Source: Methylacidiphilum caldifontis (lineage in GTDB: Bacteria; Verrucomicrobiota; Verrucomicrobiia; Methylacidiphilales; CAMAQI01). Taken from it: DNA of 64,000 nt. The position numbers and the translations under genes are program-made. Location of the stretch: NCBI GenBank assembly GCA_945877805.1, contig CAMCSM010000001.1, positions 10,221 to 74,220 of the forward strand, given 5' to 3'. The notes beneath the pieces are model-generated. The model worked only from the letters and a program-made list of their open reading frames with translations. It was not told the origin of the DNA and searched no databases. This document shows, in pieces, positions 55,135-61,777 of this stretch. Numbering within the stretch: the stretch's first letter is position 1; every line of letters begins with the position of its first letter.

Positions 55135-55350
55135 ATGAGTATCGCAGAGATTAGACAACTGCCTCAAAAGGAGAAATTCCTCATCATGGAGGCTCTCTGG
55201 TCTGATTTGATTTCCCCAGAAGAAAATTTTGAAGCCCCATCATGGCACGCCCTCGAACTCCAAAAAACGGAGCAGGAGTTAAAACAAGGTCTTATCCAAT
55301 CCATGGATTGGGACCTCGCCAAAAAGAACCTCTTGAAACGTTTTGAGTGA
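55135..55350 (+). CDS. addiction-module antitoxin (putative addiction module component family)
   Basis: 71 aa beginning MSIAEIRQLPQKEKFLIMEALWSDL. Its stop overlaps the toxin start (GTGA). Confidence 0.75.
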   Translation: MSIAEIRQLPQKEKFLIMEALWSDLISPEENFEAPSWHALELQKTEQELKQGLIQSMDWDLAKKNLLKRFE

Positions 55351-55637
55351 AAATTCGAATCCTTTCTCCCGCCATTGAAGATCTGGCTCATGGGAGAATT
55401 TTCTACGAAAAGCAAAGCCTCGGCCTCGGGAGTTATTTCTTTACCAGCCTCTTCTCTGAAATCGACTCCCTTATTTTATATGCAGGAATCCATCCGATAC
55501 GGTCAGGTCATCATCGCCTTTTAGCAAAGCGATTTCCGTACGCAATCTACTATAAAATTCATCGCCAAGAAATTCTTATTCACCGTGTTCTCGATTGCCG
55601 CCGTGATCCCCAATGGATTTTAAACGAATTAGGCTAA
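55347..55637 (+). CDS. type II toxin, RelE/ParE family
   Basis: 96 aa with the blocks ...RFPYAIYYKIHRQEILIHRVLDCRRDP, typical of ParE/RelE plasmid-stabilisation toxins. GTG start. Confidence 0.75.
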   Translation: MKIRILSPAIEDLAHGRIFYEKQSLGLGSYFFTSLFSEIDSLILYAGIHPIRSGHHRLLAKRFPYAIYYKIHRQEILIHRVLDCRRDPQWILNELG

Positions 55638-55916
55638 CAGTTTCTAAAACTCCTCTTTTTGCCTCACCCCACTTTTAACAAAAACGAAATGTCTCAAAAA
55701 AACCGCAGCCAATTCACCAAAGAGCAAAAAGAGTGACCCTAACCATCTCCAATTGGAACCAAATCACCGAATGGCTCCAAGAGGTCAAATCCTTCAGGGA
55801 AAGCCTCCCTCCAGAGACGCTTTTCTCCTTAAAGGGGCGAAATCCAGCCATAAATCCCTCCTCTCAAAGAGAGCCTTATAGGTCTAAAACCAAGATAGAA
55901 AGCCCCACTTCACCTA

Positions 55917-56903
55917 CTATCCAAATAACCGTTTAATTGAAAATGGTTGAAACTTTGAAGAAACCTTTTCGATACTCTCTTTTTCGCTGTTACCTGCATC
56001 AATAAGAGAAAAAACCTGATTAATACCGTTCAGCAAAGCGATCTGAGAATACTTGCGAGACTGTAACGTAACATACCCAAGATCAAAGAAAACCGTTCCT
56101 ACTTCATTGTTTTTCTTCACTCGATGTTCAGAAAGATCCCCTCCATTAGATATATTACTTTTATGGTAATAACGTATGTAAACCTCACTCTCATTCCAAG
56201 TGTAGGTTCCATTCCCGAAAATCGCGTCAATTGAAGCCGCCTGCAACGGTGTGGAAAGAAAGCAATATTCTTTTTTAATAACAAATGGGTTATTTTTTGA
56301 ACCAATTCCATCTACATAATTTTTATAGTTTTCAATTAAGTACAAAAAAAGTTTTTGTTTCCCATCCAATTTCTTTTCAACGCTCATATTTTTCTCCTCC
56401 ACAGATCCTTCATTATTGGTGGAACGTATATCGCTATATGCCTTTAAAGCACATTGCATCTTAACAACGGCTGAAATCAAATTTGACCATACTTCATCTG
56501 TAAATGATTTAGAGATCGATTTTTCCGAACCGTGAATTGCAGCTTCTAAATCTATTTCCTCTCCTTTCGCCCATTTTTCCCGCAATGAGAGTCCAATGAA
56601 ATAATTTATTGTTGAAGCCTCTTCTAAAGTTATTTGAGAATCAGAAACATCTCTAAGGGATTGAAAATATTTACTGCGGATCTCTTCGTTTTCAGGGAAA
56701 CAAGCTAGAGTTTTTTTCGCCATAATCTTCTCGCATTTTGCAGAATCTTCATCGAGATGAGCTCGTAAAAATTCCTTTCCTAAAAAAAGCATTTCCTCGG
56801 ATTTAATAATATATTCAGGCTTTATTGTAATCCTAAAATCGCTCCCATTTTTCAGAACTTCTTCTGGTATATTGATATTAAGACGCCTCATTTTATGCTC
56901 CAT
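55917..56903 (-). CDS. hypothetical protein, second gene of the nuclease cassette
   Basis: 328 aa with no recognisable motif. AT-rich. Starts 7 nt after the upstream nuclease gene ends. Confidence 0.55.
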   Translation of the reverse strand: MEHKMRRLNINIPEEVLKNGSDFRITIKPEYIIKSEEMLFLGKEFLRAHLDEDSAKCEKIMAKKTLACFPENEEIRSKYFQSLRDVSDSQITLEEASTINYFIGLSLREKWAKGEEIDLEAAIHGSEKSISKSFTDEVWSNLISAVVKMQCALKAYSDIRSTNNEGSVEEKNMSVEKKLDGKQKLFLYLIENYKNYVDGIGSKNNPFVIKKEYCFLSTPLQAASIDAIFGNGTYTWNESEVYIRYYHKSNISNGGDLSEHRVKKNNEVGTVFFDLGYVTLQSRKYSQIALLNGINQVFSLIDAGNSEKESIEKVSSKFQPFSIKRLFG

Positions 56904-56910
56904 TGTATGT

Positions 56911-57834
56911 TCACACAGATTTTTCTATAATCCAATCTACCAATCCGAGCCTAATCACCTTCTCTGCAATTTGATCCTCAAACCAAAACTCCACGGTAAA
57001 GTGCTTATCGTCGGGCTTAAATCTCAGATTCATTACCTTCAAATCAGACTTCGGCTGATGAACGATGTAAAAGAAAGTTTTGATCTTCTCGAACTCATCC
57101 ATCTGATCCAAGTCGGATTCAAAATCAGCCTTGGATGCCATTGATTTCACCTGAACAGCCGAAAAATCGTCCGTGATAGGATTGGAAACCTGAAAGTCGA
57201 TAGTTTTAAGACTCCCTCCGAGCTCTCCAGAGCGAAATAATCCAGATTGCCTAAAGATGAGGTCGATGAGGATCTCGAAGTCTCTCCAATGAAGCTGGAG
57301 GATTAGGGGCTTGATTCGCTGAATGAGTGCTTTTTTAGCTTCCTTCAAAGCGATCAACTCCTGAGAGGTATTCCCTTCGATGATATTTTCAATCAATTGA
57401 TGTCGATAATCCTTAATCCTGCAAATCGTTCCCCTAAACCCCCGAACCATCTCGATTGATCCCGGAACAGGATTATAGTTTTGATTTTGCAGATTAACAC
57501 TCTTCCAGCCAATACAGGATCGAGTTTTGCGTCCTTGGACATCATCGAAGAGCGTTTTTCCATTGATTCTAGTCCAATACATCTGGTTACCCGAAAAAGT
57601 GATCCAGAGATCCTTTTCGTCCGATTCACAGAAAGCCGCAATTTGATTGGAGTGAGAGGTCGCCGCCCCCTGTGTTGCTCCATTGACAATGTACCATCCT
57701 TTAATCTCCTCCCATTTTCTCTCTTTAATCAGAGCTGGGGGAACATTTCGGTAGTCCAAAATTATAATACTTTGGGACTCCGCTTCTTGAAAATACCCTC
57801 CACCTTTGCCCAACTTGACATAGTAAATCGCCAT
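56911..57834 (-). CDS. Mrr-like PD-(D/E)xK restriction endonuclease domain protein with an unknown N-terminal domain
   Basis: 307 aa. The C-terminal block WRDFEILIDLIFRQSGL...LKTIDFQV...FSAVQVKS fits the Mrr_cat pattern (FE..L, D, QxK). The N-terminal ~170 aa are unassigned. Confidence 0.6.
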   Translation of the reverse strand: MAIYYVKLGKGGGYFQEAESQSIIILDYRNVPPALIKERKWEEIKGWYIVNGATQGAATSHSNQIAAFCESDEKDLWITFSGNQMYWTRINGKTLFDDVQGRKTRSCIGWKSVNLQNQNYNPVPGSIEMVRGFRGTICRIKDYRHQLIENIIEGNTSQELIALKEAKKALIQRIKPLILQLHWRDFEILIDLIFRQSGLFRSGELGGSLKTIDFQVSNPITDDFSAVQVKSMASKADFESDLDQMDEFEKIKTFFYIVHQPKSDLKVMNLRFKPDDKHFTVEFWFEDQIAEKVIRLGLVDWIIEKSV

Positions 57835-57893
57835 AGCTTAGATAGAGCATTGGTGCGGCGTTAGTCCAGTAGCATTTATGCTCCCTTAGGGAG

Positions 57894-58184
57894 GTGGATA
57901 AGGAATTCCTCAAATCTTTGGGACTGAGCCTAAAAAAGGCACGGCAAGAGATGGGCTTTACCCAAGAATGTTTAGCGGAAATGGTCGGGATTCATTGGAA
58001 GACGTTGGGCTATATCGAATCAGGAAAACGGGACTTCAGCGTTCTCACTTTATCTAAATTGATCGAATGCCTGAAACGAACCCCATCAGAGATCATCGTT
58101 AAATTGCCGAAAACAGACTCCAGAGCCTTGAAAACGATTGCCAAGGCAAAAGCCCGCCAAAGAAAACCTCGGACGCTCCAATAA
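57894..58184 (+). CDS. XRE-family helix-turn-helix regulator (controller-protein-like)
   Basis: 96 aa with LKKARQEMGFTQECLAEMVGIHWKTLGYIESGKRDFSVLTLSKL. Divergent from the nuclease cassette. GTG start. Confidence 0.8.
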   Translation: MDKEFLKSLGLSLKKARQEMGFTQECLAEMVGIHWKTLGYIESGKRDFSVLTLSKLIECLKRTPSEIIVKLPKTDSRALKTIAKAKARQRKPRTLQ

Positions 58185-58418: not shown

Positions 58419-58748
58419 TTAACCCTTCTTCAATTGCTGATCGTCATAACGAGCCGATTCAATTCGATAGTCAGTCGGTACGCTCTCCAGATGAGGAAAC
58501 TTTATCCAATACTGGCCTCCAAATATCTTGAGCATAGCCCAATGCCACGCCTCATCATGAAACACAAGCCCTCGAAGTTCTCCAACATCTGCGGGTTCAT
58601 AATAATAGAATTCCTCCGCAAGTTTTTTGGCATCGTCCTCTGATGATTTACCGTAAGCAACAAAACACCACGCAAACATATGCCTCTCGTGATGGAGATA
58701 TTGAATATATTCGCTCTCCTTCCAATTGGATTGATTATTTAAACTCAT
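58419..58748 (-). CDS. hypothetical protein
   Basis: 109 aa, Trp/Tyr-rich, with no known motif. Lies 14 nt downstream of the 131-aa gene. Confidence 0.45.
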   Translation of the reverse strand: MSLNNQSNWKESEYIQYLHHERHMFAWCFVAYGKSSEDDAKKLAEEFYYYEPADVGELRGLVFHDEAWHWAMLKIFGGQYWIKFPHLESVPTDYRIESARYDDQQLKKG

Positions 58749-60039: not shown

Positions 60040-60220
60040 TAATCCAGATTTAGATGACACAGAAATCTCTGCACTAAGAGATGACGCTTATCTTCTGGCG
60101 AATGTTTTTATTGATATGTTTATTGAAAATAAAAAAAAATCCAAACGGGCGACTGAGCCCGCAGCATTCGATCAAAAAAACACTTTTAAAGATGAAACCC
60201 CCTTTAATTCCCTCCGTTAA
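60005..60220 (+). CDS. small acidic hypothetical protein
   Basis: 71-aa ORF bridging the MerR-like and recombinase genes. It looks more protein-like than the alternative N-terminal extension of the recombinase ORF. Confidence 0.35.
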   Translation: MLSLQEIREILNNPDLDDTEISALRDDAYLLANVFIDMFIENKKKSKRATEPAAFDQKNTFKDETPFNSLR

Positions 60221-61742
60221 AAATAAAGCCGTCATTTACTGCCGTGTTTCTACGAAAGATCAGGTTGAAAATAACAGCCTCGAATCTCAAGAAAAAGAGT
60301 GCCGGAAGTATTGCGTTGCTCATGAGCTAGATATTGTCGAAGTATTTGTTGAGCCTGGAGAAAGCGCCAAAACAGTTAATCGTCACGAGTTTCAGAGGAT
60401 GCTTGGTTTTTGTCAAAAAAATAAAGGTCGAATCTCGCATCTTATTACTTACAGCACGAGTAGGTTTAGTCGAAATAACGATGATTACTACGCAGTTAAG
60501 GCATATCTCACTAAAATGGGCATCGTCTTAAGATGTACTTCTGAGCCATTTGATGAAACTCCTCAAGGTAAATTTATGGCAGGAGTTTATGCTTTAACGT
60601 CACAGCTCGATAATGATTTAAAATCCGTGAGGACGATCGATACAATGAATGAAGCCCGAGCCAAAGGACATTGGCTTTCTAAACCTCCCTTAGGATATCG
60701 AGCTGGAGATAAAAATTTCGGTGCAAGTCTAATTCCCGATCCCGAAAGAGCAGAGCATGTTCAAAAAGCTTTTTCAATGATGGCCACTGGAATATTTTCA
60801 ATCCAAGAGGTGCTTAAAAAATTAAATCTTGAGGGATTTAAAACCCGTGGAGGAAAACCTGTTTCCATTCAGACATTTCGCCAACTTCTAAGGAAAAAAG
60901 CCTACATAGGAAAAATTGTCTCACAGCGAACCTCTGATATTTTTCAAGGAGACTTTATTCCTCTTATTGACGAAAACCCTTTCTTCCGAGTTCAAGAGAT
61001 TTTAGATGGAAAAACAAAACTCGTTAAAACATATCAAAAAATAAACCCTGACTTTCCCTTGCGAAACTTTGTGATCTGCGCGCACTGTCAAAAAGGCTTC
61101 TCAGGAAGCCACTCCAAGGGAAGAAACAGCTCCTATGCGTACTATACACCCGTTTGTCGTTGCTCTGGAGGAAATTCACCGAGTATCCGCAAAGAACGAT
61201 TAGAGAGCGACTTCTTCGCAGAACTCGAATTTTTAAAGCCAAAACAGCATCTCTTTCAAATGGTCAATAAGGTGATTCGGGACGCCACAAAAATGAGACA
61301 AAAAGGAAATCTCGATCGAAAAACTACCCTCAAAAAGAAAATGGATGATCTTCGTAAAAAACGAATGACTCTTGATGAGCGGTTTGCGTTTGAAAAAGCC
61401 ATCGATCAAGAAACATACGACCGTTTAAAAATTCAGATTCAAAATGATGAAGGGGAGATAAAGGCTGCACTCTATGAAATCGAGAGCGAGCTTTTCCATC
61501 CTGATGAGGTAATTCAATTCGCAGAAGTGGCGATGACAAATGCAGCAAGCCTCTGGAAGGATCTTCCCATGCCGCATAAACATCGCTTCCAATACCTTCT
61601 TTTTCCCCGTGGAGTCGAATATTCGGATGGGAAATTAAAAACCGCTGATAAAAGCCTCATCTTCAGTCTCTTAGAAAAGAAAAATGAGAGCGAAGATGGT
61701 TTGGTGACCCTAACGGGACTCGAACCCGTGCGTCAGCCTTGA
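60192..61742 (+). CDS. large serine recombinase (integrase)
   Basis: Catalytic block AVIYCRVSTKDQ, resolvase and recombinase domains, a Cys-rich zinc-ribbon region (CAHCQKGF...CRC) and a C-terminal coiled coil. The start is chosen at MKPPLIPS. The last 41 nt overlap tRNA-Glu on the opposite strand. Confidence 0.85.
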   Translation: MKPPLIPSVKNKAVIYCRVSTKDQVENNSLESQEKECRKYCVAHELDIVEVFVEPGESAKTVNRHEFQRMLGFCQKNKGRISHLITYSTSRFSRNNDDYYAVKAYLTKMGIVLRCTSEPFDETPQGKFMAGVYALTSQLDNDLKSVRTIDTMNEARAKGHWLSKPPLGYRAGDKNFGASLIPDPERAEHVQKAFSMMATGIFSIQEVLKKLNLEGFKTRGGKPVSIQTFRQLLRKKAYIGKIVSQRTSDIFQGDFIPLIDENPFFRVQEILDGKTKLVKTYQKINPDFPLRNFVICAHCQKGFSGSHSKGRNSSYAYYTPVCRCSGGNSPSIRKERLESDFFAELEFLKPKQHLFQMVNKVIRDATKMRQKGNLDRKTTLKKKMDDLRKKRMTLDERFAFEKAIDQETYDRLKIQIQNDEGEIKAALYEIESELFHPDEVIQFAEVAMTNAASLWKDLPMPHKHRFQYLLFPRGVEYSDGKLKTADKSLIFSLLEKKNESEDGLVTLTGLEPVRQP

Positions 61743-61777
61743 GAGGGCTGTGTCCTAACCGACTAGACGATAGGGCC
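61702..61777 (-). tRNA. tRNA-Glu (anticodon CUC), CCA encoded
   Basis: Minus-strand sequence GGCCCTATCGTCTAGTCGGTTAGGACACAGCCCTCTCAAGGCTGACGCACGGGTTCGAGTCCCGTTAGGGTCACCA. Anticodon stem is CAGCC/GGCTG, and the loop CTCTCAA gives CTC. Confidence 0.9.

Follow-up and report, generated by a model that had tools for sequence, protein, structure and literature searches.

The commonest, or standard, design among modification-dependent restriction enzymes is the fusion of a PUA-superfamily reader domain (SRA, EVE, YTH or ASCH) to a nuclease (PMC6765204; PMC12707154). MspJI joins an SRA-like reader to an Mrr-like PD-QxK domain, and in E. coli Mrr (EcoKMrr) and other Mrr_cat enzymes the same catalytic type is accompanied by an N-terminal DNA-reading domain, which in EcoKMrr is a winged helix (PMC12707154). 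PUA-superfamily readers are also found elsewhere in a restriction context, coupled to a GTPase and McrC in the YTH-McrB of Thermococcus gammatolerans and to an HNH nuclease in the EVE-HNH and SRA-HNH enzymes VcaM4I and TagI (PMC12707154; PMC6765204), and a PUA reader combined with an Mrr-like catalytic domain and an McrB GTPase is listed among the arrangements not yet investigated (PMC6765204). PADLOC, for its part, carries a single-gene candidate defence system, PDC-S02; one representative has been tested, and E. coli B carrying it was not protected from T4, T5 or T7 (bioRxiv 10.1101/2024.09.26.614923), and PDC-S02 is a catalogued candidate only, without demonstrated function. Here we consider a gene, termed gene A, in a 64,000-nucleotide stretch (the window) of contig CAMCSM010000001.1 from an assembly assigned to Methylacidiphilum caldifontis. 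With somewhat better than even confidence, we read its product as a type IV-like restriction endonuclease, dependent on modification of its target and acting alone as a single chain.

Gene A is followed on the same strand by a second gene, B, whose ATG lies 7 nt past the TGA of A, and a gene for an XRE-family helix-turn-helix (HTH) regulator is transcribed divergently, with 59 nt between its start and that of A. The protein encoded by A begins MAIYYVKLGKGGGYF and contains the motifs FEILIDLIF, TIDFQV and AVQVKS. The list of open reading frames (ORFs) thus bears out the three ORFs, the spacings and the motifs given in an initial annotation of the locus. The features are as follows, in coordinates of the window.

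56911..57834, minus strand: gene A, 307 aa (ORF list), candidate modification-dependent (type IV-like) endonuclease
57370..57834, minus strand: residues 1-155 of A, putative modified-base reader with a predicted PUA-like (YTH/ASCH-like) fold
57298..57363, minus strand: residues ~158-179 of A, long linker helix in the secondary structure of the AlphaFold2 model
56914..57297, minus strand: residues 180-307 of A, Mrr-type PD-(D/E)xK nuclease domain as judged from invariant residues, relatives and fold
57280-57282, 57274-57276, 57196-57198, 57151-57153 and 57145-57147, minus strand: codons of D185, E187, D213, Q228 and K230, in that order
55917..56903, minus strand: gene B, 328 aa (ORF list)
57894..58184, plus strand: XRE-family HTH regulator, 96 aa (ORF list)
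57835..57893: intergenic region of 59 nt between the divergent XRE gene and A

None of the three genes is a chance ORF. For A this follows from more than 300 homologues and from a ratio of nonsynonymous to synonymous substitution rates (dN/dS) of 0.05-0.18 against its close variants, indicative of purifying selection; for B it follows from the pattern among its copies, which differ at five sites, all of them synonymous third positions, and encode proteins that are 100% identical. Scans with Pfam, PADLOC, NCBIfam and PHROGs found no methyltransferase, ATPase or helicase domain in the cassette, as the initial annotation had said, nor in the rest of the island that carries it (55.6-61.8 kb).

The nuclease core and the predicted reader of gene A

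A search of 5.8 billion protein clusters returns 315 homologues of A at an expect value (E) <= 1e-3. Most are ~308 aa long and cover 98-100% of A at 30-40% identity, with one at 92%. Relatives were located at 204 loci (contigs, one genome per species), in bacteria and archaea alike, among them Bacteroidota, Chloroflexota, Patescibacteria, Pseudomonas, Nitrososphaera and Woesearchaeota; the closest in the species-representative contigs, at 93%, belongs to a metagenome-assembled genome of Akkermansia muciniphila, a hint that the window too stems from an Akkermansia-like organism. In three family members of 365-460 aa (P0024, P0025 and P0048) the body shared with A is preceded by an additional domain, DUF6508 (E 1.5e-32 for P0024), at the N-terminus, and a literature search found no mention of DUF6508.

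In an alignment of 32 sequences at 30-40% identity, D185, E187, D213 and Q228 never vary, and at least 90% of the sequences keep K230. The acidic residues and the QxK stand in the right order in A itself (DFE...TIDFQV...VQVKS); the residue pattern of the family, judged from the alignment, is the Mrr-type PD-QxK arrangement. Three full-length relatives with 34-39% identity to A (P0002, P0047 and P0024) pass the Pfam model Mrr_cat (PF04471), with E values of 1e-6, 3.7e-7 and 1.7e-5, and many others bear a precomputed PF04471 assignment. A of the window is by itself below the Mrr_cat threshold, which sets it apart from EcoKMrr and its kin: it has no hit to that model at E <= 0.1 and falls below every Pfam, NCBIfam, PHROG and PADLOC threshold. 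Its assignment as a nuclease therefore rests on its relatives, the invariant residues and the predicted fold, all of which support the Mrr-type PD-(D/E)xK core that the initial annotation had placed in the C-terminal half of the protein.

A full-length model of A, computed with AlphaFold2 (AF2) from the family alignment, has a predicted local distance difference test score (pLDDT) of 87.4. It comprises an N-terminal domain of residues ~1-155, a long helix of residues 158-179 and a C-terminal alpha/beta nuclease domain, the last with pLDDT mostly of 90-97 and an alpha-beta-beta-beta-alpha-beta, restriction-endonuclease-like fold. When this model was compared with the PDB by Foldseek, a comparison that the initial annotation had proposed, the best match was MspJI (4f0p, E 3.5e-5). 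Further matches include EcoT38I, NucS/EndoMS, YTH domains and the McrB of T. gammatolerans, as well as Bax1, the N-terminal domain of Rpb5 and the nuclease domains of DdmD and Avs4.

The N-terminal half of A is as conserved as the nuclease half, with K7, L8, G9, L76, W77, T79, F80, W87, R105, W110, G125, T136 and C138 invariant. Modelled alone, this domain reaches a pLDDT of 87.1 and a predicted template modelling score of 0.81, and its top 17 Foldseek matches in the PDB are YTH domains, after which come ASCH domains; for the YTH matches E runs from 2e-3 to 6e-2, the probability up to 0.99 and the template modelling (TM) score from 0.32 to 0.49. Among the viral models of BFVD it closely matches a Myoviridae protein, A0A8S5NVT7 (Myoviridae sp. 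ctEBR14, 336 aa; TMq 0.76, root-mean-square deviation 3.6, E 3e-7), and also an ASCH protein. The Myoviridae protein has the fold of the N-domain, and phages, too, thus carry the A family or its reader.

At the level of sequence, no similarity to YTH is seen. The profile of the N-domain gave only spurious Atg5 hits among PDB sequences, and hhalign produced no alignment with the YTH domains of YTHDF2 and YTHDC1, a weak negative in that the YTH sequences used were approximate. The same profile, when searched for other architectures, recovered the A family and fragments only, with no HNH or McrB fusions. The initial annotation had called the domain unknown and perhaps a reader of modified bases; no Pfam family does match it, and on the basis of the predicted PUA-like, YTH-like fold it is plausibly such a reader.

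MspJI is thus the closest described enzyme in architecture, with its reader and Mrr-like nuclease, but it has no sequence similarity to A that the family-alignment profile can detect among PDB sequences at E <= 1. Its reader is SRA-like, whereas that of A is YTH/ASCH-like by predicted fold, and A is ~140 residues shorter. We regard A as a candidate for an enzyme that would work like those of the MspJI type, not as a member of that family at the level of sequence. With EcoKMrr and the other Mrr_cat enzymes it appears to share the PD-QxK catalytic type and the presence of an N-terminal reading domain, predicted here to be PUA-like in place of the winged helix. The use of a PUA-superfamily reader in a restriction context, proposed for A, has its parallel in YTH-McrB, VcaM4I and TagI, but in A the reader would be fused directly to the Mrr_cat domain, without the GTPase and McrC of the former or the HNH domain of the latter two.

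PADLOC, the other comparison proposed at the outset, yields a divided picture. A and B of the window score nothing, with no hit for A against the PDC-S02 hidden Markov models (HMMs) even at E <= 0.1, but 16 of 32 members of the A family do match those HMMs, weakly (best 9.2e-10, most 1e-4 to 1e-2). The models are 299-346 positions long, similar to A, and in two alignments the match takes in the N-domain and extends either as far as the beginning of the nuclease domain or over almost the whole length. By these sequence matches A is a divergent sister branch of PDC-S02 that PADLOC would not call.

Gene B, the XRE regulator and the conserved unit

The divergent regulator, a 96-aa XRE HTH protein as the initial annotation had described it, matches HTH_3 in Pfam (E 3.7e-11) and, in PADLOC, HTH_VI (1.4e-8) and Control_protein (1.4e-6). 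It stands upstream of A in five of five related loci, including one, on contig L001, that lacks B. DNA homology between the window and L001 extends from 56918 to ~58193, that is, over exactly XRE and A, and stops 5 nt before the start of the A stop codon; XRE plus A (1.28 kb) is therefore a unit that travels together in this Akkermansia-related lineage. Across the family at large, of 137 immediate neighbours only two are HTH_3 genes, of which one is in L001 and so in the same lineage, and because such a neighbour is this rare elsewhere the regulator is a lineage-specific addition to A.

The 59-nt intergenic region has just three variable sites over four variants, and the codons on either side of it have a synonymous divergence (dS) of 0.25-0.46. 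This near-invariance against diverged flanking codons points to constrained promoters or operators, and the region presumably carries both promoters and the XRE operator. A custom scan picked out the inverted repeat AGCAT (57871-75)-N2-ATGCT (57878-82) and a third half-site, GAGCAT (57845-50); at 5-6 nt these repeats are too short to convince and are not statistically compelling. A dedicated inverted-repeat tool found none in the region, and scans of the cassette for sigma-70 promoters and for terminators gave counts no higher than in shuffled sequence. XRE is presumably a repressor of A.

The initial annotation had likened this protein to the controller (C) proteins of type II restriction-modification (R-M) systems. 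A small HTH_3 protein is indeed linked to a putative restriction gene, and the PADLOC Control_protein matches, though weak, are of this kind; on the other side, the link holds in this lineage only, and the protein scores higher with generic HTH models. C proteins belong to an R-M unit with a methyltransferase, whereas XRE has no methylase to coordinate. They are usually co-oriented with, and upstream of, the restriction gene, whereas XRE is divergent. Their operators are palindromic C-boxes; the XRE/A region is strongly conserved and holds the 5-6-nt inverted repeats. "Controller-like" is for this protein an analogy, not a statement of membership.

Gene B has no recognisable domain, in agreement with the initial annotation: it matches nothing in Pfam, NCBIfam, PHROGs or PADLOC, and neither scans of Pfam with split domains at E <= 10 nor a search of PDB sequences found anything. 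In a word-indexed search of 5.8e9 clusters its sole match is its own sequence. An exhaustive phmmer search of 1.84e9 representatives gave no full-length relative and one extra match, a 217-aa protein that aligns locally over ~85 residues at 38% identity. The A-B pairs, on contigs L003-L006, come from three or more distinct contigs or insertion sites and are near-identical copies of one element. On L001 and L002 an A that is 92% identical is followed, where B would be, by an unrelated 275-aa protein with two hydrophobic segments near its N-terminus and no match in PADLOC. When four genes on each side were clustered at ~75 diverse family loci, no neighbour recurred beyond trivially related contigs, and no member of the A family outside this lineage has a B-like neighbour; among the relatives scanned, the genes downstream of A encode a relaxase, an amidohydrolase, a DUF4357 protein and proteins of no assigned kind. 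B is therefore a real, lineage-restricted orphan in a variable slot downstream of A, probably co-transcribed with it, and not a conserved partner. The single-gene nature of A is supported by this want of a conserved neighbour and by the matches of its relatives to PDC-S02.

Identity along A is uneven in a manner that bears on B. Comparison with L004 and L006 reveals a recombination breakpoint at ~57300, near codon 175-180 of A, at the nuclease-proximal (C-terminal) end of the linker helix. On one side of it, XRE and codons 1-175 of A show 82-95% DNA identity and a dS of 0.46; on the other, codons 176-307 and all of B are 99-100% identical, with a dS of 0.00. Diversifying selection on the reader domain was considered as the cause and rejected: dN/dS is 0.12 there, and dS itself jumps from 0.00 to 0.46. 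Such a step, with that ratio, indicates that recombination, i.e., mosaicism, lies behind the uneven identity.

The initial annotation took A and B for an obligate two-gene defence or abortive-infection system under C-protein-like control by XRE, and several of the observations above could be marshalled for it, namely the 7-nt spacing on one strand, the co-occurrence at three or more sites, the purifying selection on B, and the presence of B and the nuclease half of A in one near-identical recombination block. Every co-occurrence, however, is a copy of one element, a full-length B homologue is found nowhere, and the pair is not syntenic elsewhere in the family; where A is 92% identical another protein stands in place of B, with homology ending at the A stop codon, and the relatives of A match a candidate that consists of a single gene. 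The two-gene cassette does not survive these results, and we consider an obligate A-B system very doubtful. Less doubtful, though still improbable, is that A is a constant sensor-nuclease and the downstream gene an exchangeable accessory, which might for instance act as an effector, confer immunity or inhibit A. Behind nearly identical A genes one does find, in the same slot, two unrelated genes; the 275-aa occupant has, as read from its translation, N-terminal membrane segments like those of many abortive-infection effectors; and many family loci have a same-strand gene less than 100 nt downstream. Elsewhere, however, the downstream genes are mixed and include housekeeping-type enzymes and genes in the opposite orientation, none matches PADLOC, and plain shuffling of island genes would also produce replacement at a gene boundary. 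Tight spacing beside a nuclease does not make a system, and the conserved unit here is regulator plus nuclease.

The island and its variable contents

The remaining features of the island and its borders are these.

55135..55637: toxin-antitoxin pair (Unstab_antitox 3.4e-11; toxin ParE-like, weak, E 0.07)
58419-58748, minus strand: small cargo ORF, 109 aa
58763-59158, minus strand: small cargo ORF, 131 aa
59254-60039, plus strand: MerR-like HTH protein (Pfam MerR_1)
60081-61742, plus strand: large serine recombinase (Pfam Resolvase, Recombinase and Zn_ribbon_recom)
61702-61777, minus strand: tRNA-Glu(CTC) (tRNA scan)

Other insertions of the element cease to match the window at ~55642 and ~61832, and the limits of the island, taken from these breakpoints, give a length of ~6.2 kb. 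Within them lie the recombinase, the MerR-like gene, variable small cargo, XRE, A and B. Neither cargo ORF matches anything in Pfam, NCBIfam or PADLOC, and their one PHROGs hit, at E 0.25, is not credible. No att-type direct repeats were found flanking the island, but a serine recombinase would not be expected to leave any. Over its final ~40 nt the recombinase ORF shares its DNA with the 3' half of the tRNA-Glu(CTC) gene on the opposite strand, which suggests that the island integrated into, and rebuilt, the end of the tRNA. The initial annotation had spoken of an integrase-bounded island next to a toxin-antitoxin pair. There is indeed a large serine recombinase, at tRNA-Glu, but it stands at one end only; of the adjoining pair the antitoxin is solid, whereas the toxin half resembles ParE only weakly.

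The island is itself mosaic. In L004 and L006 the recombinase is 71-84% identical to that of the window and XRE-A-B 93-94% identical, and a MauJ-like gene of 240 aa replaces the 109- and 131-aa cargo ORFs, which marks a second variable slot. On the contigs without B, L001 and L002, which have the 275-aa protein in its place, a 181-aa ORF lies beyond XRE on the side away from A (these ORFs are at L001 2592-3137 and 4489-5079 and L002 984-1811). The 181-aa ORF resembles Mrr_cat_2 weakly (GIDLLI...LQVKFSK), at an E of 0.022 that falls short of the Pfam cut-off, and has no PADLOC match.

The non-coding stretch that separates B from the ParE-like gene (55642-55901), present in one copy in the window, recurs at 75-83% identity in related contigs (L005 1100-1370, 2387-2494, 5276-5533 and 6211-6355; L006 9217-9324 and 12106-12363). 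At least two of these copies adjoin small toxin-antitoxin-like pairs (DUF433/DUF5615, Unstab_antitox), and the stretch resembles a repeated cassette boundary or promoter module. One copy in each of L005 and L006 is adjoined by a lone 53-nt piece of the nuclease domain of A (L005 2572-2624; L006 9402-9454), 90.6% identical to window positions 57173-57225 and probably the relic of a decayed second copy of gene A.

Across the A family, a qualitative listing of immediate neighbours includes type I and type III R-M genes, DrmD-, Hma- and ZorD-like helicases, PD-Lambda-1, PDC-S14, relaxases, integrases and housekeeping genes, with no conserved methyltransferase neighbour. Such neighbourhoods are compatible with variable or defence islands.

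Proposed function and its alternatives

The mode of action that we favour would begin with the N-terminal PUA-like domain reading a modified base in incoming DNA, the base probably being flipped into a pocket formed by the invariant residues W77, W87 and W110. The long helix would couple this reader to the Mrr-type PD-QxK nuclease, which would then cut near the modified base, probably as an oligomer in the manner of MspJI and Mrr, with a presumed anti-phage effect. The divergent XRE repressor would bind the 59-nt region and hold both A and itself at a safe level, and B would be a passenger, not needed for the activity of A. A type IV-like system was among the readings put forward in the initial annotation, and it is the best one given that no methylase is present.

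XRE repressors commonly control the genes of mobile elements. One might accordingly suppose that A serves the element on which it resides and that XRE is the repressor of the island. The nuclease could then be one of addiction or exclusion, or it could act in recombination or repair as NucS/EndoMS does. That A sits on a serine-recombinase island beside a tRNA, and that NucS/EndoMS and Bax1 are among its fold matches, would fit this view. The TM scores of NucS and Bax1 are low (0.20-0.28), however, and reflect a shared nuclease core; L001 has XRE and A with no recombinase visible on that 5-kb contig; and the majority of family loci lie outside any recognisable mobile element, with neighbours that vary. 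We give this explanation only a slim chance. Slimmer still is the chance that A targets modified RNA and degrades it in the manner of a toxin. The YTH domain binds N6-methyladenosine-modified RNA in eukaryotes and furnishes the best fold matches, and RNA has been predicted as the target of some type IV-related systems with PUA-like readers (PMC11090510), but the characterised Mrr_cat enzymes act on DNA (PMC12707154). A bolder form of the favoured reading we think unlikely as a whole: the ~308-aa family would be a large clade of single-chain type IV enzymes in bacteria, archaea and phages, its reader a new YTH-like domain of the PUA superfamily, perhaps with a novel specificity (e.g., N6-methyladenine or a hypermodified base), held in check by XRE in the Akkermansia lineage and modulated by exchangeable downstream accessories.

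What is new here is the divergent A-type enzyme; the kind of enzyme to which it would belong, and the catalogued, unvalidated candidate PDC-S02, were already known. Should A prove active as a modification-dependent endonuclease, this group of enzymes, which are useful for epigenome mapping, as is MspJI, would gain a member in which an Mrr-type nuclease is joined without intermediary to a YTH-like reader. The specificity of the reader, once found, would also explain what a widespread domain, so far unannotated, and the related PDC-S02 do. For the organisms themselves, an active A would mean that such enzymes shape the entry of phages and plasmids into gut Akkermansia-like bacteria.

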